Assembly: GCA_965247095.1 (NCBI GenBank)
Contig: OZ251997.1
Span: forward strand, 3,808,001 to 3,872,000
Reading direction: 5' to 3'
From: Candidatus Multivorans sp.
GTDB lineage: Bacteria; Acidobacteriota; Thermoanaerobaculia; Multivoradales; Multivoraceae
Length of the DNA: 64,000 nt
How positions within the stretch are numbered: the first letter of the stretch is position 1; each line of letters starts with the position of its first letter. Of this stretch, positions 38,973-43,929 are shown piece after piece. A program made the position numbers and the translations under genes. The notes under the pieces are model-generated. The model searched no databases. It was not told the origin of the DNA and saw only the letters and a program-made list of their open reading frames with translations.

Positions 38973-39251
38973 GCGCTTGAGGCTCTGCGCGAGGACAGAC
39001 CGCTGTCGGAGATTGCGGCCCGTCACAAGACCACCGGCCGAAGGGAGAGAGCGCGGAGCATCCGGAGCGTTTCGGCCTTATCCGTACCTGCTCAAGGGCC
39101 TGAAGATCGAGCGCTCGCACTCGCCGCTTGGCGGCAGCACACCTAGCGAGGAATACCGCGAAGACCGCCCGGACGCGGCCGTCAGGCACCAGCCGGCAAC
39201 CCCGGACGATCGGCAGAATCCAAGTCTTACACAGCCCCGGCGACGGCTGTT
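38973..39251 (+). mobile_element. Internally deleted IS3-family relic; right end continues at 42274-42337
   Basis: Spliced fragments ALEALREDRPLSEIAARH (OrfA), PYPYLLKGLKIER (OrfB) and HSPLGGSTPSEEY (OrfB C-terminus); IRR-like CTGTCCAACGAACCTGGATCACCCA at 42313-42337. Confidence 0.65.
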
Positions 39252-39305
39252 TGAGCTTGACCCGTTTTGGTGGACACCTCATTCTTGGAAGAGGAGGTAT
39301 CCACG

Positions 39306-39614
39306 ATGTCGAGAAGAAGGAGCCGGTACCCAGCAGAGTACCGGCAGCAGATGGTGGATCTGGTCCGGTCCGGGCGGAGCCCGGACCAACTAGCCCGCGA
39401 GTTCGAGCCGTCAGCGCAGTCGATCCGGAACTGGGTCGCCCAGGCGGACCGGGACGAGGGTCGCCGCAGCGACGGGAGCACGACGGCGGAGCGTGAGGAG
39501 TTGCGCCGTCTGCGCCGGGAGAATCGCCGGCTGCGGGAAGAGCGGGAGATCCTGGCAAAAGCAACGGCCTGGTTCGCTCGGGAGACGGAACCGAAGGGGT
39601 CTTCCGGTTCATGA
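39306..39614 (+). CDS. IS3 OrfA
   Basis: HTH plus EELRRLRRENRRLREEREILAKATAWFA; GAGGAGG RBS. Confidence 0.9.
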   Translation: MSRRRSRYPAEYRQQMVDLVRSGRSPDQLAREFEPSAQSIRNWVAQADRDEGRRSDGSTTAEREELRRLRRENRRLREEREILAKATAWFARETEPKGSSGS

Positions 39615-40261
39615 GAGCGCACCAGGCCGAGTTCCGCGTCACGACGATGGCCCGCGTGCTCGGCGTCTCCACGAGGGGGTTCTACGCCTGGCTGAAGCGC
39701 CCGCGGTCGGCCAGGGAGAAGTCGGACACCGCTCTCGCCGAGCGGGTGCGGGCGATTCACGAACGGAGCCGAGGGACCTACGGGGCGCCGAGGATTCAGG
39801 CTGAACTGGCCGACTGTGGGTTCGCAGTGAGCCGCAAGCGCGTTGCCAGACTGATGCGAGAGTCCGGCCTGGCGGGCATCAGCCGCCGCAAACGGCCGAC
39901 GACGACCCGTCGCGCCGCTTCGGTTCGCCCGGCGCCGGACCTCGTTGATCGGCAGTTCGTGGCTGAGGCCCCGGATCGACTGTGGGTCGCGGACATCACT
40001 TACGTTCCGACGCTTGCCGGGTTCGTGTACCTGTCGATCGTCCTGGACGTATTCAGTCGGCGAATCGTCGGCTGGGCCATGAATTCTTCTCTGGCAACCG
40101 ACCTCGTGCTCAGCGCTCTGGAGATGGCGATTGCCCAGCGGCGACCCGAGTGCGTGATCCACCACTCCGATCAAGGCAGCCAGCTTGGGTTCAAGGGATC
40201 GTCGCAACGCTTGGACGTCCAGGTCCGGTTCCGGTCCTCCTACGGGCGGAGTCTATTGGTT

Positions 40262-40450
40262 AGCCGTCGCCGGGGCTGTGGGAGGTGTGGGAAACGCGGA
40301 GGTCCTCCGGAGCGTTTTCCAAGCGGCTGCGGAAATCGCCTCAGCGATTTCCGAGGGGCCTGTGGGAGAGCTGTGTGAAGCGGGCGGGGGCCCGGGGGCT
40401 TTGCACAGCTCTTCCACCAGACCCGGCAGACGCGACACCTTCCACAGCCC
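40262..40450 (+). ncRNA. Candidate structured non-coding RNA (or ssDNA) module, multi-branch fold
   Basis: 16-bp closing stem plus three internal hairpins; all five non-Watson-Crick stem pairs seen are G-U on the + strand. Confidence 0.55.
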
Positions 40451-40533
40451 TCCGGGACCGGCCGGGCGCATGGATCGAAGGCGTGCTCCCTGGCGGTCAG
40501 ATTCGATTGGAATCCCCGGTCGTTCTCAGCCGC

Positions 40534-41904
40534 CTACGTGTGTACGAGCTCCTCAAAGACTTCGGCAGGCGTTCTCCAGCCGAGTGTCTTGCGGGGTCGG
40601 CTGTTGAGGGCGAGCGCGACCGCGGAGAGGTCGTCGCTGGAGTATCTGACCAGGTCAGTGCCCTTCGGGAAGTACTGGCGTAGCAGCCCATTGGTGTTCT
40701 CGTTGGTGCCCCTCTGCCAGGGGCTTTGCGGATCGCAGAAGTAGATCGCGATTCCGGTGTCGACGCGGAGTTGAGCGTGTTGAGCCATCTCGGCGCCCTG
40801 GTCCCAGGTCAAGGATCGCCGGAGGTGCTCGGGCAGCGTCGTGATCGACGCCGCGATCGCGTCACGGACGGCTTCTGCGCCGTGCCCGGCGAGCGCCGGC
40901 CCGTTCTTCACCCTCGATTCGTTGCCGTGGCCTTCCATACGGGGCAGGTGCAGCAGCATTGTGAAGCGCGTAGTCCGTTCGACGAGGGTGCCGATCGCTG
41001 AGCTCTCGAGCCCGACGATCAGGTCACCTTCCCAGTGGCCCGGTACGGCCCGGTCGCCGGCTTCGGCGGGGCGTTCGCTGATCATGATTCCCGGGGTCAC
41101 AAACTTCTTGCCTGACCTCCGAGTACGCGCACGCGGCACACGTAGCGCTCGCCCGGTTCGCAGGCACGCGACGAGCTCGCGCTTGAGGGCTCCTCGACCT
41201 TGGATGTAGAGCGCTTGGTAGATCGCCTCGTGAGAGATCCGCATCGACTCATCATGAGGAAAATCGATGCGAAGCCGATTCGAGATCTGCTCCGGGCTCC
41301 ACGACTTCGCCCAACGCCGATCCTGGCGGCGACCGTGCCGACGGCCAATCCAACGCACAGCCGGACCGGGTACCGGCTCCCCGTCAGGCCTTGCGATCAA
41401 GCCGGCGAGGCGGTCCTGCACGTACTCACGCAAGGCGTCGTTCGCGGCAAGCTTGGAGACCTTCGGCCGGCTGGCGCGCCGCTCCGCGTGCCACTGGGCA
41501 GTCGTCGCTCGATAGGCGACGCCACCACTTCGAGTCGACGCGTTGCGGCGCAGCTCCCGCGAAATCGTCGACGGTGAACGGCCCATGCGTCGGGCGATTT
41601 CACGTACCCCAATGTGCTGAGCGTGAAGGATGGCGATCTCTTCCCGCTCGGCCAACGACAGATAACGCCCCGACACTGGAGCCAACGAAATAGGCGGCAT
41701 TCCGCCAGCTTCCCTGAACCATCTCGATCCGACTGCCTGCGACACTCCAGCTTCCCGTGCAGCATCCTCGGTGGACGCCCCACGAACGATCGCCTCCCAG
41801 AAGCGGACCCGATCCTCGCGATGCGCTGTCGAGGGACGGCCCGGCGACCACATCTGCCCACGCATCTCACGAATCGCACGCCTACGCTTACCAACTCCCA
41901 TCAC
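40534..41904 (-). CDS. IS30 transposase
   Basis: RSPSTISRELRRN, WSPEQIS, GHWEGDL, WDQGAEM, SPWQRGTNENTNGLLRQYFPKG. Confidence 0.96.
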   Translation of the reverse strand: MMGVGKRRRAIREMRGQMWSPGRPSTAHREDRVRFWEAIVRGASTEDAAREAGVSQAVGSRWFREAGGMPPISLAPVSGRYLSLAEREEIAILHAQHIGVREIARRMGRSPSTISRELRRNASTRSGGVAYRATTAQWHAERRASRPKVSKLAANDALREYVQDRLAGLIARPDGEPVPGPAVRWIGRRHGRRQDRRWAKSWSPEQISNRLRIDFPHDESMRISHEAIYQALYIQGRGALKRELVACLRTGRALRVPRARTRRSGKKFVTPGIMISERPAEAGDRAVPGHWEGDLIVGLESSAIGTLVERTTRFTMLLHLPRMEGHGNESRVKNGPALAGHGAEAVRDAIAASITTLPEHLRRSLTWDQGAEMAQHAQLRVDTGIAIYFCDPQSPWQRGTNENTNGLLRQYFPKGTDLVRYSSDDLSAVALALNSRPRKTLGWRTPAEVFEELVHT

Positions 41905-42371
41905 GAAACACCTCCATCACGAGATGTTGCGACGACCAGTTGAATCCACCCAGTACACTTCACTGACGTTCGGGAACCGCTGCCGCGATGCCGGCATCGC
42001 ACTCTCGATGGGTTCCGTCGGAGATTGCTACGACAACGCCATGGCCGAGAGCTTCTTCGCCAGCCTCGAGTGCGAGCTGCTCGACCAGACAACGTTCCGA
42101 AATCACGCCGAAGCGAAGGCGGAACTCTTTCGCTACATCGAGGGCTGGTACAATACCCATCGTCGCCATTCCGCGATCGGACAACGCTCACCCGTCAACT
42201 TCGAAGAGGCGTACCGAGAGGCCGCCTGATTCCCTAAACACAAACTGTCCACGAAACCGGGGCAACTCCAGTTTGACCAACCAGGGGAGTACACGTTGGC
42301 CCAGCGGCCATACTGTCCAACGAACCTGGATCACCCACTCTATGTAGTGAGCCACTAACTGAGCCACTACA

Positions 42372-43929
42372 TCACCAGCGTAGTCCCATACAGAGATGAG
42401 CCTGAAGGGGGGTCCTCCGGGAGTTGCGCCGAGAGAGTGGGGCGGGGCGGGTTTCAGGGCTGCTGATCGAAGCGAAGCAGAGATCAGCACCAGGGACCAG
42501 CGGTAGCGCGGGAACCGCGAGCCGCAGTCGAGATGCACTGAAGGGCGAGACGGGGAGGTTGGGCTGTCCGCTCATGCGACAGTTGCCTCGCGGCGTCGGA
42601 TTTCGGCGAAGAGTGCGATGAGGGCCTCCTTGACGGCGCTCGCGGCGGCGAGGTCGTCGAGTGCCAGAGCCTGCTGGTCGAGCTGCTCGAAGGTGACGCC
42701 GGGTCGCAGGCAGAGGGCGGCGCCGTCGAGCGACTTGAGCTTGAGGTAGGGCGTGGTGACCTTGTCGAAGGGATAGGTCTTGCGGATGCGTCCCTTCGCG
42801 TCGGTGGTCTCGACGGGGAAGTGGCAGGGCCGGTGGTAGTTGAGGAACGGAGCGAGCACGTCGCGCAGGAAGTCCTTGACGAGGGCGGCATGCCGCCGGG
42901 GAATGTGGTCGTAGCCGAGGTAGCGCCGCACCACCGAGGCGTTCTTGCTCTCGACCAGGGCGTTGTCGTTGCTGCGCCTCGGGCGGGACTTGGTGAACTC
43001 CTCGATGTGCAGCTTGCGCAGCAGCGCGGCCACCCGGTGGTTGATGTACTCGGAGCCGTTGTCGGCGTGGAAGCCCCGGATGATGAACGGGAAAGCCTCG
43101 ATCGATCCTTCCAGGGCCGGAACCAGGAAACGCTCCGAAATGCCTTCTACAGCGGCCACGAACTCGTACTGCGTGACCTCGTCCACGAGATTGATCTCGT
43201 ACAGACCCTTCTCCCCGTCCAGGTCGCCCTGATGGACCGAATCCACTCGCAGAAAGCCCGGCCGACCCGCGGGATGAGGCTTGCGACGCTCTCCGATCTG
43301 TACCTTCGTCGACCGCGTCCTGACCACCACAAGGCGCCGCCGCCGGTACGTGGTCGACTCGCGAAGCCGGTACAGATGGCTGTTCGAGAGACCCGCCAGA
43401 CGCTCGAACCGCACATCCCCGAACACCGCGTACTGGCGCTGCATCATGCGCCGGGTCACCGCGCCGCACAGACCGCCCAGGGTCTCGTCCACCTCGGCCA
43501 GCAGGCCGATGTCCGCCTTCGTGTAGCGCCGGGGAAACGGACGCTTCGGACCCCGGCGCCGGTCCTCGATGCGCCCCGTCTCCCGGTACTGGAAGATCAA
43601 CCGCGCGATCTGCGCCCGACTGAACCCCGTCACCTTGATCAGAAAGCGCCGCACCAGCCCCTTGTCCGGCCTCGACAGCCGAACGTAGCGCGAACGCACC
43701 AGAACCCGCCGCACGAAACCGTACGCATCGGCACGCTTCACGAAGCGGAAGTCGACCGGCGCGCTGCCGGCCATGAAGTCGCGGACCTCGTCCAGGGTCC
43801 GCAGCCGTTCGATATCGAGTCGCAAGATCATCCTCCAATGATCCCCAACCCACTCTCAGGCTCATCTCTCGTGGGATTGACATGACTCCTTCAGGCTCAT
43901 CTGTCATGGGACAAGGCTTCACCTTGACA
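42372..43929 (-). mobile_element. ISNCY/IS481-like element with repeated end motifs; one boundary uncertain
   Basis: Left end TGTCAAGG at 43929; TCAGGCTCATCT twice in 43856-43902 and once inverted near 42394-42405. Confidence 0.7.
42572..43831 (-). CDS. DDE integrase-domain transposase
   Basis: RVDSVHQGD, FHADNGSEYIN, NDNALVESKN, FLNYHRPC. Confidence 0.9.
   Translation of the reverse strand: MILRLDIERLRTLDEVRDFMAGSAPVDFRFVKRADAYGFVRRVLVRSRYVRLSRPDKGLVRRFLIKVTGFSRAQIARLIFQYRETGRIEDRRRGPKRPFPRRYTKADIGLLAEVDETLGGLCGAVTRRMMQRQYAVFGDVRFERLAGLSNSHLYRLRESTTYRRRRLVVVRTRSTKVQIGERRKPHPAGRPGFLRVDSVHQGDLDGEKGLYEINLVDEVTQYEFVAAVEGISERFLVPALEGSIEAFPFIIRGFHADNGSEYINHRVAALLRKLHIEEFTKSRPRRSNDNALVESKNASVVRRYLGYDHIPRRHAALVKDFLRDVLAPFLNYHRPCHFPVETTDAKGRIRKTYPFDKVTTPYLKLKSLDGAALCLRPGVTFEQLDQQALALDDLAAASAVKEALIALFAEIRRREATVA

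Follow-up and report, generated by a model that had tools for sequence, protein, structure and literature searches.

An IS30-family element and its 3' non-coding region

The window analysed here, 64,000 nucleotides of a chromosomal contig of Candidatus Multivorans sp., contains a complete insertion sequence (IS) of the IS30 family that has inserted into the orfB gene of an IS3-family element (Table 1). A second copy in the same genome is 100% identical over 40183-41951, and the target duplication of 2 bp is AG in the window (40182-40183 and 41952-41953) and CA at the second copy. The IS30 family is recognised by a transposase with HTH and DDE domains, by terminal inverted repeats and by a target duplication of 2-3 bp. 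In addition to its 2-bp duplication, the element in the window has inverted repeats of 23 nt that are 83% complementary (40186-40208 and 41926-41948) and a transposase with the Pfam domains HTH_38 (E 2.1e-19) and rve (27.8 bits, under the Pfam cut-off of 32.6). Relatives of this transposase are encoded in 599 of 600 candidate stretches from public genomes.

Between the right terminal inverted repeat (IRR) and the transposase stop codon, 84 nt downstream of the stop and antisense to the transposase, lies a multi-hairpin cassette at 40262-40450. The IRR is the sole part of this 3' non-coding region that matches other IS30 relatives (6 of 80 loci). No Pfam family was found in the open reading frames 40253-40471 (- strand, 72 aa) and 40185-40607 (+ strand, 140 aa).

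Table 1. Coordinates of the IS30 element, the cassette and associated features in the window.
Feature	Position	Strand	Basis or remark
Isolated perfect copy of the leader and first outer-stem bases	39230-39248	-	19 nt, 100%; E 0.003 in whole genome
Complete IS30-family element, 1768 bp, cassette carrier	40184-41951	-	Delimited by the second, 100% identical copy and by junctions against an intact IS3 copy
Right terminal inverted repeat (IRR)	40184-40208		Partner at 41926-41951
Spacer, IRR to cassette	40209-40261	+	AT-richer box GAGTCTATT at 40251-40259
Unpaired 5' leader, family consensus CGTCGCCGG	40262-40272	+	Conserved in family alignment
Outer (closing) stem, 5' arm	40273-40288	+	Fold; helix 1 of the family model
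Hairpin 1, TGGGAAACGC ... GCGTTTTCCA	40288-40321	+	Arms 40288-40297 and 40312-40321; G-T wobble 40291/40318
Hairpin 2, CGGAAATCGC ... GCGATTTCCG	40330-40353	+	Arms 40330-40339 and 40344-40353; pairing perfect
Hairpin 3, long, extra	40364-40415	+	Arms 40364-40381 and 40398-40415; three wobble pairs; long form only
Outer stem, 3' arm	40435-40450	+	Fold; inverted-repeat match to the 5' arm
IS30-family transposase gene, 456 aa	40534-41904	-	Pfam HTH_38, rve

Anatomy of the cassette

The segment 40265-40450 is predicted to fold into an outer stem of 16 pairs, complementary at 15 of the 16 positions, that encloses three hairpins. The predicted stems are near-perfect, with loops of 3-5 nt, and large internal loops are absent both from this copy and from the family members described below. 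There are exactly five non-Watson-Crick pairs, each of them G-T or T-G on the + strand (40282/40441, 40291/40318, 40366/40413, 40376/40403 and 40377/40402), and these same positions therefore become A-C on the - strand. For 40255-40460, RNAfold gave -128.8 kcal/mol on the + strand (z -7.67), a stability reached by none of 200 dinucleotide shuffles, and -113.9 kcal/mol on the - strand (z -7.14), a difference of 15 kcal/mol in favour of the former. Folding beyond chance on both strands is to be expected of palindromic DNA. An earlier, sequence-only reading of this locus had described a closing stem with three hairpins, the five wobbles with their strand assignment, a fold favouring the strand antisense to the transposase, and a place in the IS30 3' non-coding region; a script check found all four stems at the coordinates given, the wobble assignment proved exact, and the strand preference and the placement inside 40184-41951 were both borne out.

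In IS21 and IS256 carriers, boxes of the form GAGTGTA(T/C), similar to GAGTCTATT, precede the cassette by 10-45 nt, and in those with IS256 the box seems to be placed in the terminal repeat. Neither GAGTCTATT nor the GAGTGTA(T/C) box can be read as a -10 element. The isolated copy of the leader at 39230-39248 lies 4 nt outside the left end of the IS3 element and is probably a remnant of another cassette copy.

A covarying and strand-asymmetric family

The cassette is a member of a family with a common architecture, in which the unpaired leader is followed by an outer stem around two to four hairpins. The outer stem is present in all the family members that were read, and the number of hairpins differs among copies through duplicated units; a third or nested hairpin, as in the window, is also found at loci L084, L085, L086, L088, L096 and L109. 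One imperfect palindrome, CTGTGGGAA...TTTCCACAG, underlies every stem and includes a conserved G-U wobble; this motif at the base is conserved while the distal parts of the stems covary. The conservation of one motif across the phylum, repeated in every stem, suggests either recognition by a protein or recent spread from a single source.

Covariation, which the sequence-only reading had proposed as a check together with a covariance model, is strong. In an RNAalifold alignment of 17 short-form copies from different genomes, 13 of the 34 pairs show compensatory changes. In an alignment of 57 covariance-model hits (55 of them distinct), pairing is retained in 97.6% of cells and changes on both sides are seen in 24 of the 34 pairs, counts that overstate the number of independent events since the model itself guided the alignment and many of the copies are relatives of one another. 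None of 500 shuffles of this alignment reached any of the five measures, and sliding the partner columns by 1-3 lowered pairing to 37-55%. In the family model, compensatory changes affect 9 of the 13 pairs of the outer stem (helix 1) and 9 of the 11 pairs of hairpin 2 (helix 3), and the wobble position of hairpin 1 (columns 29/76) is G-U in 50 of the 55 distinct members.

The strand preference is likewise a property of the family. The + strand is the more stable in all 54 distinct copies compared (mean -73.2 versus -58.1 kcal/mol), and it scores 80-110 bits with the covariance model, the - strand 25-43. G-U or U-G cells number 132 versus 11 for A-C or C-A, or 41 versus 11 once the two columns with a G-U majority are left out. 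This asymmetry is unable to separate RNA from DNA, as G-T wobbles are tolerated in folded single-stranded DNA too.

Searches for a known counterpart returned nothing convincing. Within the element, Rfam 15 (39000-43000, E<=10) gave only mir-1228 (25 bits versus 88) and mir-197 (19.9 versus 74), which are noise, and seven family loci (20,315 bases) gave no match at E<=1. Our search of open-access papers found no published description of the cassette, although one may exist elsewhere. The sequence-only reading had suspected a discrete, strand-specific and undescribed module, and to this extent its suspicion holds. With high confidence, we identify the locus as a copy, in the long form with three hairpins, of a modular cassette that has spread through unrelated mobile elements within one phylum.

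Carriers, polarity and distribution

The covariance model detected the cassette in 27 of the 57 genomes from the window's family and in 30 of 151 from across the phylum (29 of 150 without one unpublished genome, G248); blastn detected it in 69 of 201 relatives. It was absent by covariance model from all 43 IS30 relatives of other phyla, and blastn in distant mode, with the short form and the window copy as queries, found no match in a plasmid collection. The window's own genome has six copies, all inside ISs, four in IS21 and two in IS30 elements. Elsewhere in the genomes searched the number does not exceed 51, the high-copy genomes G026, G040 and G024 holding 16-51.

Tabulation of the carriers, also proposed by the sequence-only reading, showed the cassette in the subterminal non-coding DNA of IS21, IS3 and IS30 elements, and beside IS481 and IS256 transposase genes, IS110 and DUF222-HNH genes. 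IS21 elements, IS110-adjacent units and IS3 elements are the commonest, and other families of the phylum supplied further IS3 and IS21 carriers with the same arrangement. Among 53 loci, the nearest neighbour was a mobile-element gene in 38 and an ordinary host gene in four, and 11 had no identified neighbour. In all 38 of the former loci the mobile-element gene lies on the 3' side of the cassette's + strand, whichever strand that gene is on (IstB - 18, IS110 + 14, IS3 - 1, IS481 - 1, IS256 + 2, DUF222-HNH + 2). The more stable strand thus reads 5' to 3' inward from the nearby terminus toward the gene of the carrier, being antisense to the gene at 3' ends, and sense and upstream of it in the IS256, IS110-adjacent and DUF222 contexts. 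By copy comparison, the distance of the cassette from the terminus is 78-81 nt for IS30, 105 nt for the IS21 of this genome (2585 bp, with the cassette ~20 nt after the istB stop), 50 nt for the IS3 elements of G268 and G281, and ~245 nt for the IS21 of G214. In the IS110-adjacent units the IS110 boundary lies ~40 nt from the cassette, which is outside the IS110 element. Matches of an IS3 OrfB seed to the cassette in tblastn were an artefact of a stop-to-stop open reading frame in the seed that crossed a cassette.

Separability and conservation

The cassette can be separated from its carriers. In G026, an IS21 copy and an IS110-bearing repeat unit are 89% identical over exactly the 109-nt module and share nothing else, which marks the module as exchangeable between mobile elements, and solo units of 200-210 nt that lack a transposase exist in G040 and G175. 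A clean empty site was found neither among eight aligned relatives of the IS21 right end nor among 18 hits in five genomes to the IS3 right end, all of which carry the cassette or a degraded version of it; examples of degradation are a partial deletion (L214) and a replaced middle (L220).

Pairwise identity among six intact cassettes of one IS21 lineage, whose members are 72-100% identical at the DNA level, is 0.87, compared with 0.79 for the IRR, 0.71 for istB coding sequence, 0.61 for the spacer and 0.36 for adjoining non-coding DNA. Compensatory changes in the stems are seen within this lineage as well.

A related IS30 element in G048 (L095) has kept the leader and lost the hairpins. A CCGGG direct repeat flanks the hairpins in the window and is single in this hairpin-less relative, a single comparison that may fit slippage deletion of a palindrome as well as target duplication; with the conserved leader still present there, the state of L095 may be a deletion. 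An inner relic of the IS30 right end at ~40506-40530 looked plausible by eye against locus L004, and its score was matched by 68 of 500 shuffles for the left repeat (IRL) and 188 of 500 for the IRR, so this candidate was rejected.

Search for transcription signals

A consensus scan of 40100-40700 found no sigma-70-type promoter on either strand. No hairpin-plus-U-tract terminator was found on either strand of the same interval, and the other copies that were read likewise have no run of U after the cassette; termination, if any, would therefore be non-canonical. The scan thus gave no match to the simple terminator that the sequence-only reading had set against its own interpretation. Of the words sampled from the stretch, only 5-8% are present in RNA-labelled sequencing runs, and contigs of 148-195 nt from such runs cover 40249-40455, which indicates presence only, without strand, ends or level. 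Two contigs join 40208/40209 to 40540/40556 and represent IS30 forms without the whole 330-347-nt extension. A candidate pairing of the + strand at 40184-40470 with the 5' end of the transposase mRNA (duplex energy -60.8) was equalled by 95 of 200 shuffles and was set aside.

Discussion

On sequence grounds, the cassette is a previously undescribed, strand-specific element, present near one end of many unrelated ISs of the phylum and always directed inward. Its function is something we only infer, and the readings below differ in whether the folded strand would be RNA or DNA and in whether it would serve the IS or itself.

In the reading that we prefer, the cassette would act in cis as a structure of the single-stranded + strand, most likely as RNA arising from transcription that enters the IS through the flanking DNA or the terminal region. 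Such RNA would fold into a block of several hairpins, of great stability, and so shield the IS from transcription that originates outside it. Alternatively, it may form the stable 5' domain of an inward transcript, which would be antisense to the 3' end of the transposase gene in IS30, IS21 and IS3, and would constitute a 5'-UTR in IS256. In the window, the target would be + strand transcripts running from the IRR (40184) toward the 3' end of the transposase gene. A plain insulator needs no phylum-wide conserved motif repeated in every stem, which counts against insulation. We hold this RNA mechanism, as insulator or antisense, tentatively, at somewhat less than an even chance; the complete account, in which the identity of the cassette is blended with the mechanism, comes close to even without reaching it.

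Antisense control in ISs is exemplified by IS10 (RNA-OUT), IS30 and IS200, in which stable stem-loops take part in the control. The cassette resembles these RNAs, which form stem-loops opposite the transposase strand and limit transposase expression. They offer a precedent for regulatory RNA borne by an IS (PMC8450116). The statement of the sequence-only reading that no ncRNA is established for IS30 was imprecise on this point, PMC8450116 naming IS30 with IS10 and IS200 for inhibitory antisense RNA. The known RNAs are each confined to one IS and overlap the stretch of mRNA under their control, whereas the cassette lies outside the coding region, has sense orientation in certain carriers and is missing from other IS30 elements.

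The next reading to be weighed is that of a selfish miniature element, similar to a MITE or a REP, which rides in dispensable IS DNA and whose hairpins serve its own mobility through an enzyme acting in trans. REPs lie outside genes on the chromosome, where they number in the hundreds, and are associated with RAYT (Y1) transposases. With REP/BIME elements the cassettes have in common the imperfect palindromes, the conserved motif at the stem base and the covarying distal stems. They also resemble them in composite clusters, strand asymmetry and service as landing sites for the IS110 family, and the IS110 target site ~40 nt beside the cassette has its parallel at REPs of Pseudomonas (PMC12288879, PMC8450116). 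REPs are mainly extragenic and independent of mobile elements, whereas 38 of 53 cassette loci adjoin a mobile-element gene, the cassettes lie mostly inside ISs, and their copy numbers are modest. A Y1 transposase (PF01797; RAYT/IS200-type) was present in two of five genomes, one each in G000 and G028, and absent from the high-copy G026, G040 and G024, so the partner enzyme that this reading calls for was not found.

The comparison with MITEs is similarly divided. Like these, the cassette is short and non-coding, folds into long hairpins, has solo units and possesses in its outer stem a 16-nt terminal inverted repeat. In contrast to MITEs, neither a duplicated target site, apart from the ambiguous CCGGG repeat, nor a matching autonomous element came to light. 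Moreover, its inverted repeat covaries as a stem would rather than being conserved like a transposase binding site, and the leader is on one side only.

A selfish RNA gene carried along by an IS has its precedent in ssr9 of ISPpu9, an IS110-family element of Pseudomonas putida; ssr9 is a non-coding module of ~180 nt beside the transposase gene inside the IS (PMC12288879). It is present in some IS copies, absent from others and also found solo, and is hence a separable unit (PMC12288879, PMC8450116). In these accounts ssr9 belongs to one IS in one species group, is a demonstrated transcript with its own promoter and is bounded by IS end boxes, whereas the cassette is common to at least five transposase families across the phylum, is defined by self-similar hairpins and is known here from DNA sequence.

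In favour of a selfish element are thus a discrete unit common to unrelated elements, hairpin units that vary in number and are duplicated, the solo units, and the CCGGG repeat that flanks the hairpins here and is single in the IS30 of G048. The same repeat is equally explained by slippage deletion, with the leader remaining in the hairpin-less copy; moreover, there is no clean pair of filled and empty sites among the IS21 or IS3 relatives, nearly all copies travel within an IS (all six in the window's genome), and the cassette is the best-conserved non-coding part of the IS21 lineage, which is unexpected for a neutral passenger. On balance we regard this explanation as unlikely, if still deserving attention.

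The folded + strand may also be DNA. The families that carry the cassette transpose through circular copies, in what is called copy-out-paste-in. Single-strand initiation or primosome sites and the single-strand origins of plasmids are orientation-dependent, multi-hairpin structures of 100-200 nt formed by one folded DNA strand. According to this reading, the cassette would be a signal of this kind for a replicative step of transposition, at which the second strand of the circle is initiated by primosome assembly: replication entering from the nearby end would displace the strand that runs inward 5' to 3', that is, the + strand, or use it as lagging-strand template. The use of copy-out-paste-in by IS30 (PMC9333248) agrees with such a signal, as do a polarity fixed to the nearest IS terminus and not to the gene, a position within 50-250 nt of that terminus, a strand asymmetry compatible with folded DNA, and a multi-hairpin build with one motif per stem that fits recognition by a conserved host protein. 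The orientation-dependent build is shared with the single-strand initiation sites, with no known relation in sequence; those sites have been described for phages and plasmids, and our search of open-access literature found neither a report of one within an insertion sequence nor a link between copy-out-paste-in and primosome sites. The argument is one of position, and copies also occur beside DUF222-HNH genes, beside host genes and beside, not inside, IS110. In five single-contig genomes, with the origin taken as dnaA, the terminus assumed opposite and two genome lengths rounded, the + strand was on the lagging-strand template in 36 copies and on the leading in 56 (binomial p 0.047), which runs opposite to the idea of a chromosomal lagging-strand bias, although this count concerns chromosomal and not transposition-linked replication. 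We consider a single-stranded DNA signal distinctly improbable.

One may further speculate that the cassette is an accessory cis-module shared by ISs that transpose through circles. The folded strand near the IS end would be recognised by a conserved host protein and would load the replication or priming machinery during copy-out or, as protein-bound RNA, set the rate of transposition; by raising the success of its carriers it would have been passed among at least five transposase families. This broader proposal is a long shot.

An ordinary terminator, or a stabiliser of the 3' end of the transposase mRNA, would make the - strand the functional one. The position behind the stop codons of the transposase in IS30 and of istB in the genome's IS21, and the strong fold of the - strand as well, are in line with this, but the - strand is the weaker in all 54 copies, the conserved wobbles are A-C mismatches there, the U-tract is missing from 40100-40700, and beside IS256, IS110 and DUF222 genes the cassette precedes the gene in sense orientation, all of which makes the explanation very unlikely.

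Hardly credible, finally, is the guiding role raised by the sequence-only reading, in which an IS30-encoded RNA comparable to the IS110 bridge RNA or the IS200/605 omega RNA would direct the transposase: a structured, strand-specific non-coding element in a transposon end and the striking target specificity of this IS30 lineage, for a single site in IS3 orfB, would suit it, but IS30 relatives at 91% identity (L003 and L004) use the same IS3 site with no cassette, the cassette is found in none of 43 IS30 relatives and is carried by IS21, IS3 and IS256 elements with unrelated transposases, and complementarity to the IS's own 5' end does not exceed that of shuffles. The bridge RNA (or seekRNA) of IS110 has two internal loops that match target and donor DNA, whereas the nearly perfect stems of the cassette leave no programmable internal loop, and the carrier transposase is an IS30-type DDE enzyme, not a DEDD recombinase; omega RNAs adjoin tnpB or iscB, whereas the IS30 transposase is the only gene in the carrier, with no TnpB or IscB. 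The same distribution, with other IS families dominating and a related IS30 lacking the hairpins, overturns the earlier view of a function specific to, or encoded by, IS30. The attC sites of integrons, single imperfect hairpins with extrahelical bases that adjoin gene cassettes and an integron integrase, are presumably unlike the present cassette, in which near-perfect hairpins inside an IS meet in a three-way junction.

The usual description of an insertion sequence comprises a transposase gene and two ends. To this the present family adds a structured element of 100-190 nt that covaries strongly, keeps a fixed polarity, is spread across the phylum and exceeds the non-coding DNA around it in conservation. 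In practical terms, the motif is missing from Rfam, is a good marker of IS ends in high-GC genomes and accounts for some contig breaks in draft assemblies. If unrelated ISs have repeatedly kept such an accessory structure, they would share a common, unrecognised step, in which the IS is shielded from host transcription, controlled by antisense RNA or replicated as a transposition intermediate; otherwise, the cassette would be a tiny parasite specialised for life inside other parasites. Should the reading as a cis-module be true, the cassette would be the first functional module known to serve bacterial insertion sequences irrespective of family, and the replication step of copy-out-paste-in transposition, at present poorly understood, would become easier to approach.

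A strand-specific hairpin cassette shared across insertion sequences

The cassette at 40262-40450 lies in high-GC DNA, and all checkable details of the sequence-only reading of it (the outer stem, the hairpins and the five wobbles) are correct. All five non-Watson-Crick pairs are G-T or T-G on the + strand in a scripted check. Folded with RNAfold, the + strand reaches -128.8 kcal/mol (z -7.67), which none of 200 shuffles matched, and the - strand -113.9 kcal/mol (z -7.14). The parts of this copy are listed in the table together with those of its IS30-family carrier.

Features of the window copy of the cassette and of its IS30 carrier
Feature	Position	Strand	Basis
Unpaired leader AGCCGTCGCCG	5' part of 40262-40450	+	sequence reading
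Outer stem, 16 bp	40273-40288 with 40435-40450	+	sequence reading, scripted pairing check
Three hairpins within the outer stem	40288-40321, 40330-40353, 40364-40415	+	sequence reading, pairing check
IS30 transposase ORF	40534-41904	-	HTH_38 (E 2.1e-19) and weak rve match
Inverted repeats of IS30	40186-40208 and 41926-41948		
IS30 insertion junctions	40182-40184 and 41951-41953; second copy, G000:C1:468082-469849; 91%-identical relative, L004 4380-4410		

When 40209-40510 was compared by blastn with 201 related genomes, 69 matched, chiefly in the leader, an outer-stem arm and hairpins 1-2. The 29 loci that were read share a leader CGTCG(C/T)CGG and an outer stem GGGCTGTGGGAGCTG / CAGCTTCCACAGCCC; inside it are between two and four hairpins, all following the scheme TGGGAA-stem-loop-stem-TTTCCA. 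Cassettes come in short (~100 nt) and long (140-190 nt) forms, and certain hairpin units are duplicated or nested. The Rfam search that the sequence-only reading had proposed, run on 39000-43000 of the window and on seven family loci, matched no family to the cassette, and no match was found in a plasmid collection.

The covariation check proposed in the same reading gave a positive answer. In the consensus of 17 short forms, 13 of 34 pairs have compensatory changes. A covariance model (R1) returned 57 hits, 55 of them distinct, in which 97.6% of cells pair and 24 of the 34 pairs change on both sides, in an alignment that is fitted to the model and in which many copies are kin. None of 500 shuffles reached these values, and sliding the partners reduced pairing to 37-55% of cells. 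The strand-specific fold is likewise borne out: all 54 distinct copies compared have the more stable fold on the + strand, with a mean difference of 15 kcal/mol. G-U cells outnumber A-C cells by 132 to 11; at two positions in the stems, 50 and 41 of the 55 sequences have G-U, and outside these two columns the counts are 41 and 11. These counts point to one strand, the + strand, as the functional form; the asymmetry does not discriminate RNA from DNA.

Elsewhere in the window, 19 nt on the - strand (39230-39248) repeat the leader and first outer-stem bases perfectly, 4 nt beyond the left boundary of the IS3 into which the IS30 is inserted. Unrelated sequence follows it, and it may be a remnant of another cassette. 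A 21-nt near-copy of the same stretch occurs at G000:4167531-4167551 in the window's own genome.

Distribution and polarity

The model matches 27 of 57 genomes in the window's family, each carrying between 1 and 51 copies, and 30 of 151 across the phylum; among these 30, G248 is an unpublished genome. Of the six copies in the window's genome, two are in the IS30 copies and the other four in a 2585-bp IS21-family element (G000:C1, around 3046686, 2645633, 1203881 and 175920). This element has terminal repeats of ~60 nt that contain GGAAAGTGAGCCAC twice, and in each copy a short-form cassette lies ~20 nt past the istB stop; the copy at 175920 adjoins a truncated IS3.

We surveyed 53 loci with the cassette set on the + strand, identifying neighbours by seed-protein tblastn and Pfam. 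Just 3' of the cassette, istB lies on the - strand in 18 loci; an IS110-type gene is on the + strand in 14; the other mobile genes are IS3 orfB (-, 1), IS481-type (-, 1), IS256-type (+, 2) and DUF222-HNH (+, 2). Ordinary host genes adjoin four, and the remaining 11 have no identified neighbour or too short a contig. In all 38 loci that have a mobile-element gene, it is on the 3' side of the + strand, and IS3 and IS21 carriers from distant families of the phylum have the identical layout. By copy comparison, the cassette is internal to its carrier: it starts 105 nt from the terminus in the IS21 of the window's genome, 50 nt in the IS3 of G268 and G281, and ~245 nt in the IS21 of G214. As a rule, then, the more stable strand runs 5' to 3' inward from whichever IS end is closer, and is thus antisense where the cassette follows the last gene (IS21, IS3, IS481 and IS30) and sense where it precedes the gene (IS256).

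Several arrangements were seen around individual cassettes. In one locus (L102 1481-1581 and flanks) the IS3 orfB frame stays open through the entire cassette, lengthening the C-terminus by ~50 residues; this read-through produces spurious tblastn hits between cassettes. In another (L107 1480-1580 and 1717-1817) tandem cassettes 137 nt apart precede a DUF222-HNH gene. The cassette is often preceded, at a distance of 20-60 nt, by a pyrimidine tract CCTCCTTTC (e.g. L088, L091, L087, L100, L145; window 40238-40246). This tract is similar to the 16S rRNA 3' end and, read as its complement, gives a strong Shine-Dalgarno sequence directed at the IS end.

Next to IS110 the situation is different: the cassette belongs to a repeat unit of ~210-285 nt (L173-L177 in G040, L164-L166 in G026) that also occurs without IS110. 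In both genomes the IS110-family elements have the target GCCGGAGTC^CC, ~40 nt beyond the cassette on its 3' side. In G040, where the unit measures ~210 nt, the cassette is thus part of the IS110 landing site; in G026 the whole IS110-bearing unit is bounded by the inverted repeat GCGCGGCAGAACT. The ~190 nt from insertion point to start codon at the IS110 left end leave room for a bridge RNA; an Rfam search of one such locus (L137) found no match.

The IS30 carrier

The ORF at 40534-41904 has the make-up of an IS30 transposase, HTH_38 with a weak rve match. Comparison with an intact IS3 copy fixes the element at 40184-41951 with a 2-bp duplication, so the cassette is internal to it, on the antisense strand, starting 78-81 nt from the right terminus, with 84 nt between its end and the transposase stop. 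The genome has another copy of the element, 100% identical across 40183-41951. The two are inserted in different IS3 copies (88% mutual identity) in opposite orientations, with duplications AG and CA, at one site in orfB, the codons of the catalytic-region motif DQGSQ|Y (GGCAGCCAGTAC). Two 91%-identical relatives in other assemblies (L003, L004) occupy the same site, which suggests that this lineage targets another IS's transposase gene sequence-specifically.

The cassette is not a feature of IS30 elements in general. We assembled 80 IS30 loci from public genomes of many phyla, with transposases 63-91% identical; blastn of the 3' non-coding region matched the terminal repeat alone, in 6 of 80, and the covariance model matched none of the 43 loci searched with it. 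The 91%-identical relatives have their terminal repeat immediately after the gene, and a relative in G048 (L095) shares the extended 3' region of the window copy, leader included, and lacks the hairpins.

In contigs of two marine-sediment runs labelled as RNA libraries (X1, X2), 40208/40209 is joined to 40540/40556. These are IS30 forms that skip the 330-347 nt with the cassette, the terminal repeat directly following the transposase gene; other short contigs of these runs contain the cassette. Within the transposase coding region, a weak Rfam match to the Streptomyces sRNA Scr2736 (41011-41073, - strand; 32.1 bits, gathering score 43, E 0.0085) is probably due to chance.

Possible functions

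The candidate we rank first, tentatively, is that the cassette acts as RNA. Transcripts that reach into the IS from outside or from its terminal region would adopt the very stable + strand fold, which might block or trim them; alternatively, the fold could be a stable 5' domain for an inward RNA, in the window's IS30 one that is antisense to the 3' end of the transposase gene. Antisense RNAs are in use by ISs, IS30 among them, according to passages of PMC8450116. Counting against an RNA, neither a consensus promoter nor a U-tract terminator was detected at the cassette region, nor any complementarity of this region to the transposase 5' end.

It is less likely that the cassette is a selfish hitch-hiker riding in insertion sequences. 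Solo units do exist and CCGGG flanks the hairpins of the window copy, but no partner enzyme was found, the Y1 transposase is absent from the high-copy genomes, and IS21 and IS3 relatives yielded no clean empty site. Attractive but rather improbable is a single-stranded DNA role in replicative transposition, argued from position: the carrier families are presumably those making circular copies through a replicative step, and replication coming in at the nearby end displaces the strand that reads inward. A protein partner is suggested by the conserved motif that recurs in the stems. Orientation relative to chromosomal replication (36 versus 56 copies) is of no help. Distribution and strand asymmetry contradict both a plain terminator of the transposase gene, which is very improbable, and the guiding role for IS30 raised by the sequence-only reading, which is even more so.

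Whichever role applies, the cassette is a separable unit. In G026, IS21 copies and IS110-bearing units share 89% identity across exactly the 109 nt of the cassette and nothing beyond. In the IS21 lineage of the window's genus (72-100% identity; six intact cassettes, two further copies degraded), pairwise identity is 0.87 in the cassette, 0.79 in the terminal repeat, 0.71 in the istB 3' coding sequence, 0.61 in the spacer and 0.36 in the next non-coding stretch. This pattern of conservation argues that the cassette benefits the carrier IS, or, as a minimum, that copies losing it do not spread.

Among known elements, structured repeats of the REP/BIME type, MITEs and the ISPpu9 module ssr9 come closest. 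Unlike REP/BIME, the cassette is not mainly extragenic and shows no association with a RAYT; with MITEs it shares the inverted repeats; and, in contrast to ssr9, it is common to several transposase families. The sequence-only reading is confirmed as an observation and supported in part as an interpretation: the element is real, conserved and strand-specific and, within the reach of our searches, undescribed, and it is not specific to IS30. On these comparisons, and with no matching Rfam family, the cassette is best classed as a structured repeat that has either specialised for the ends of insertion sequences or been recruited by them.
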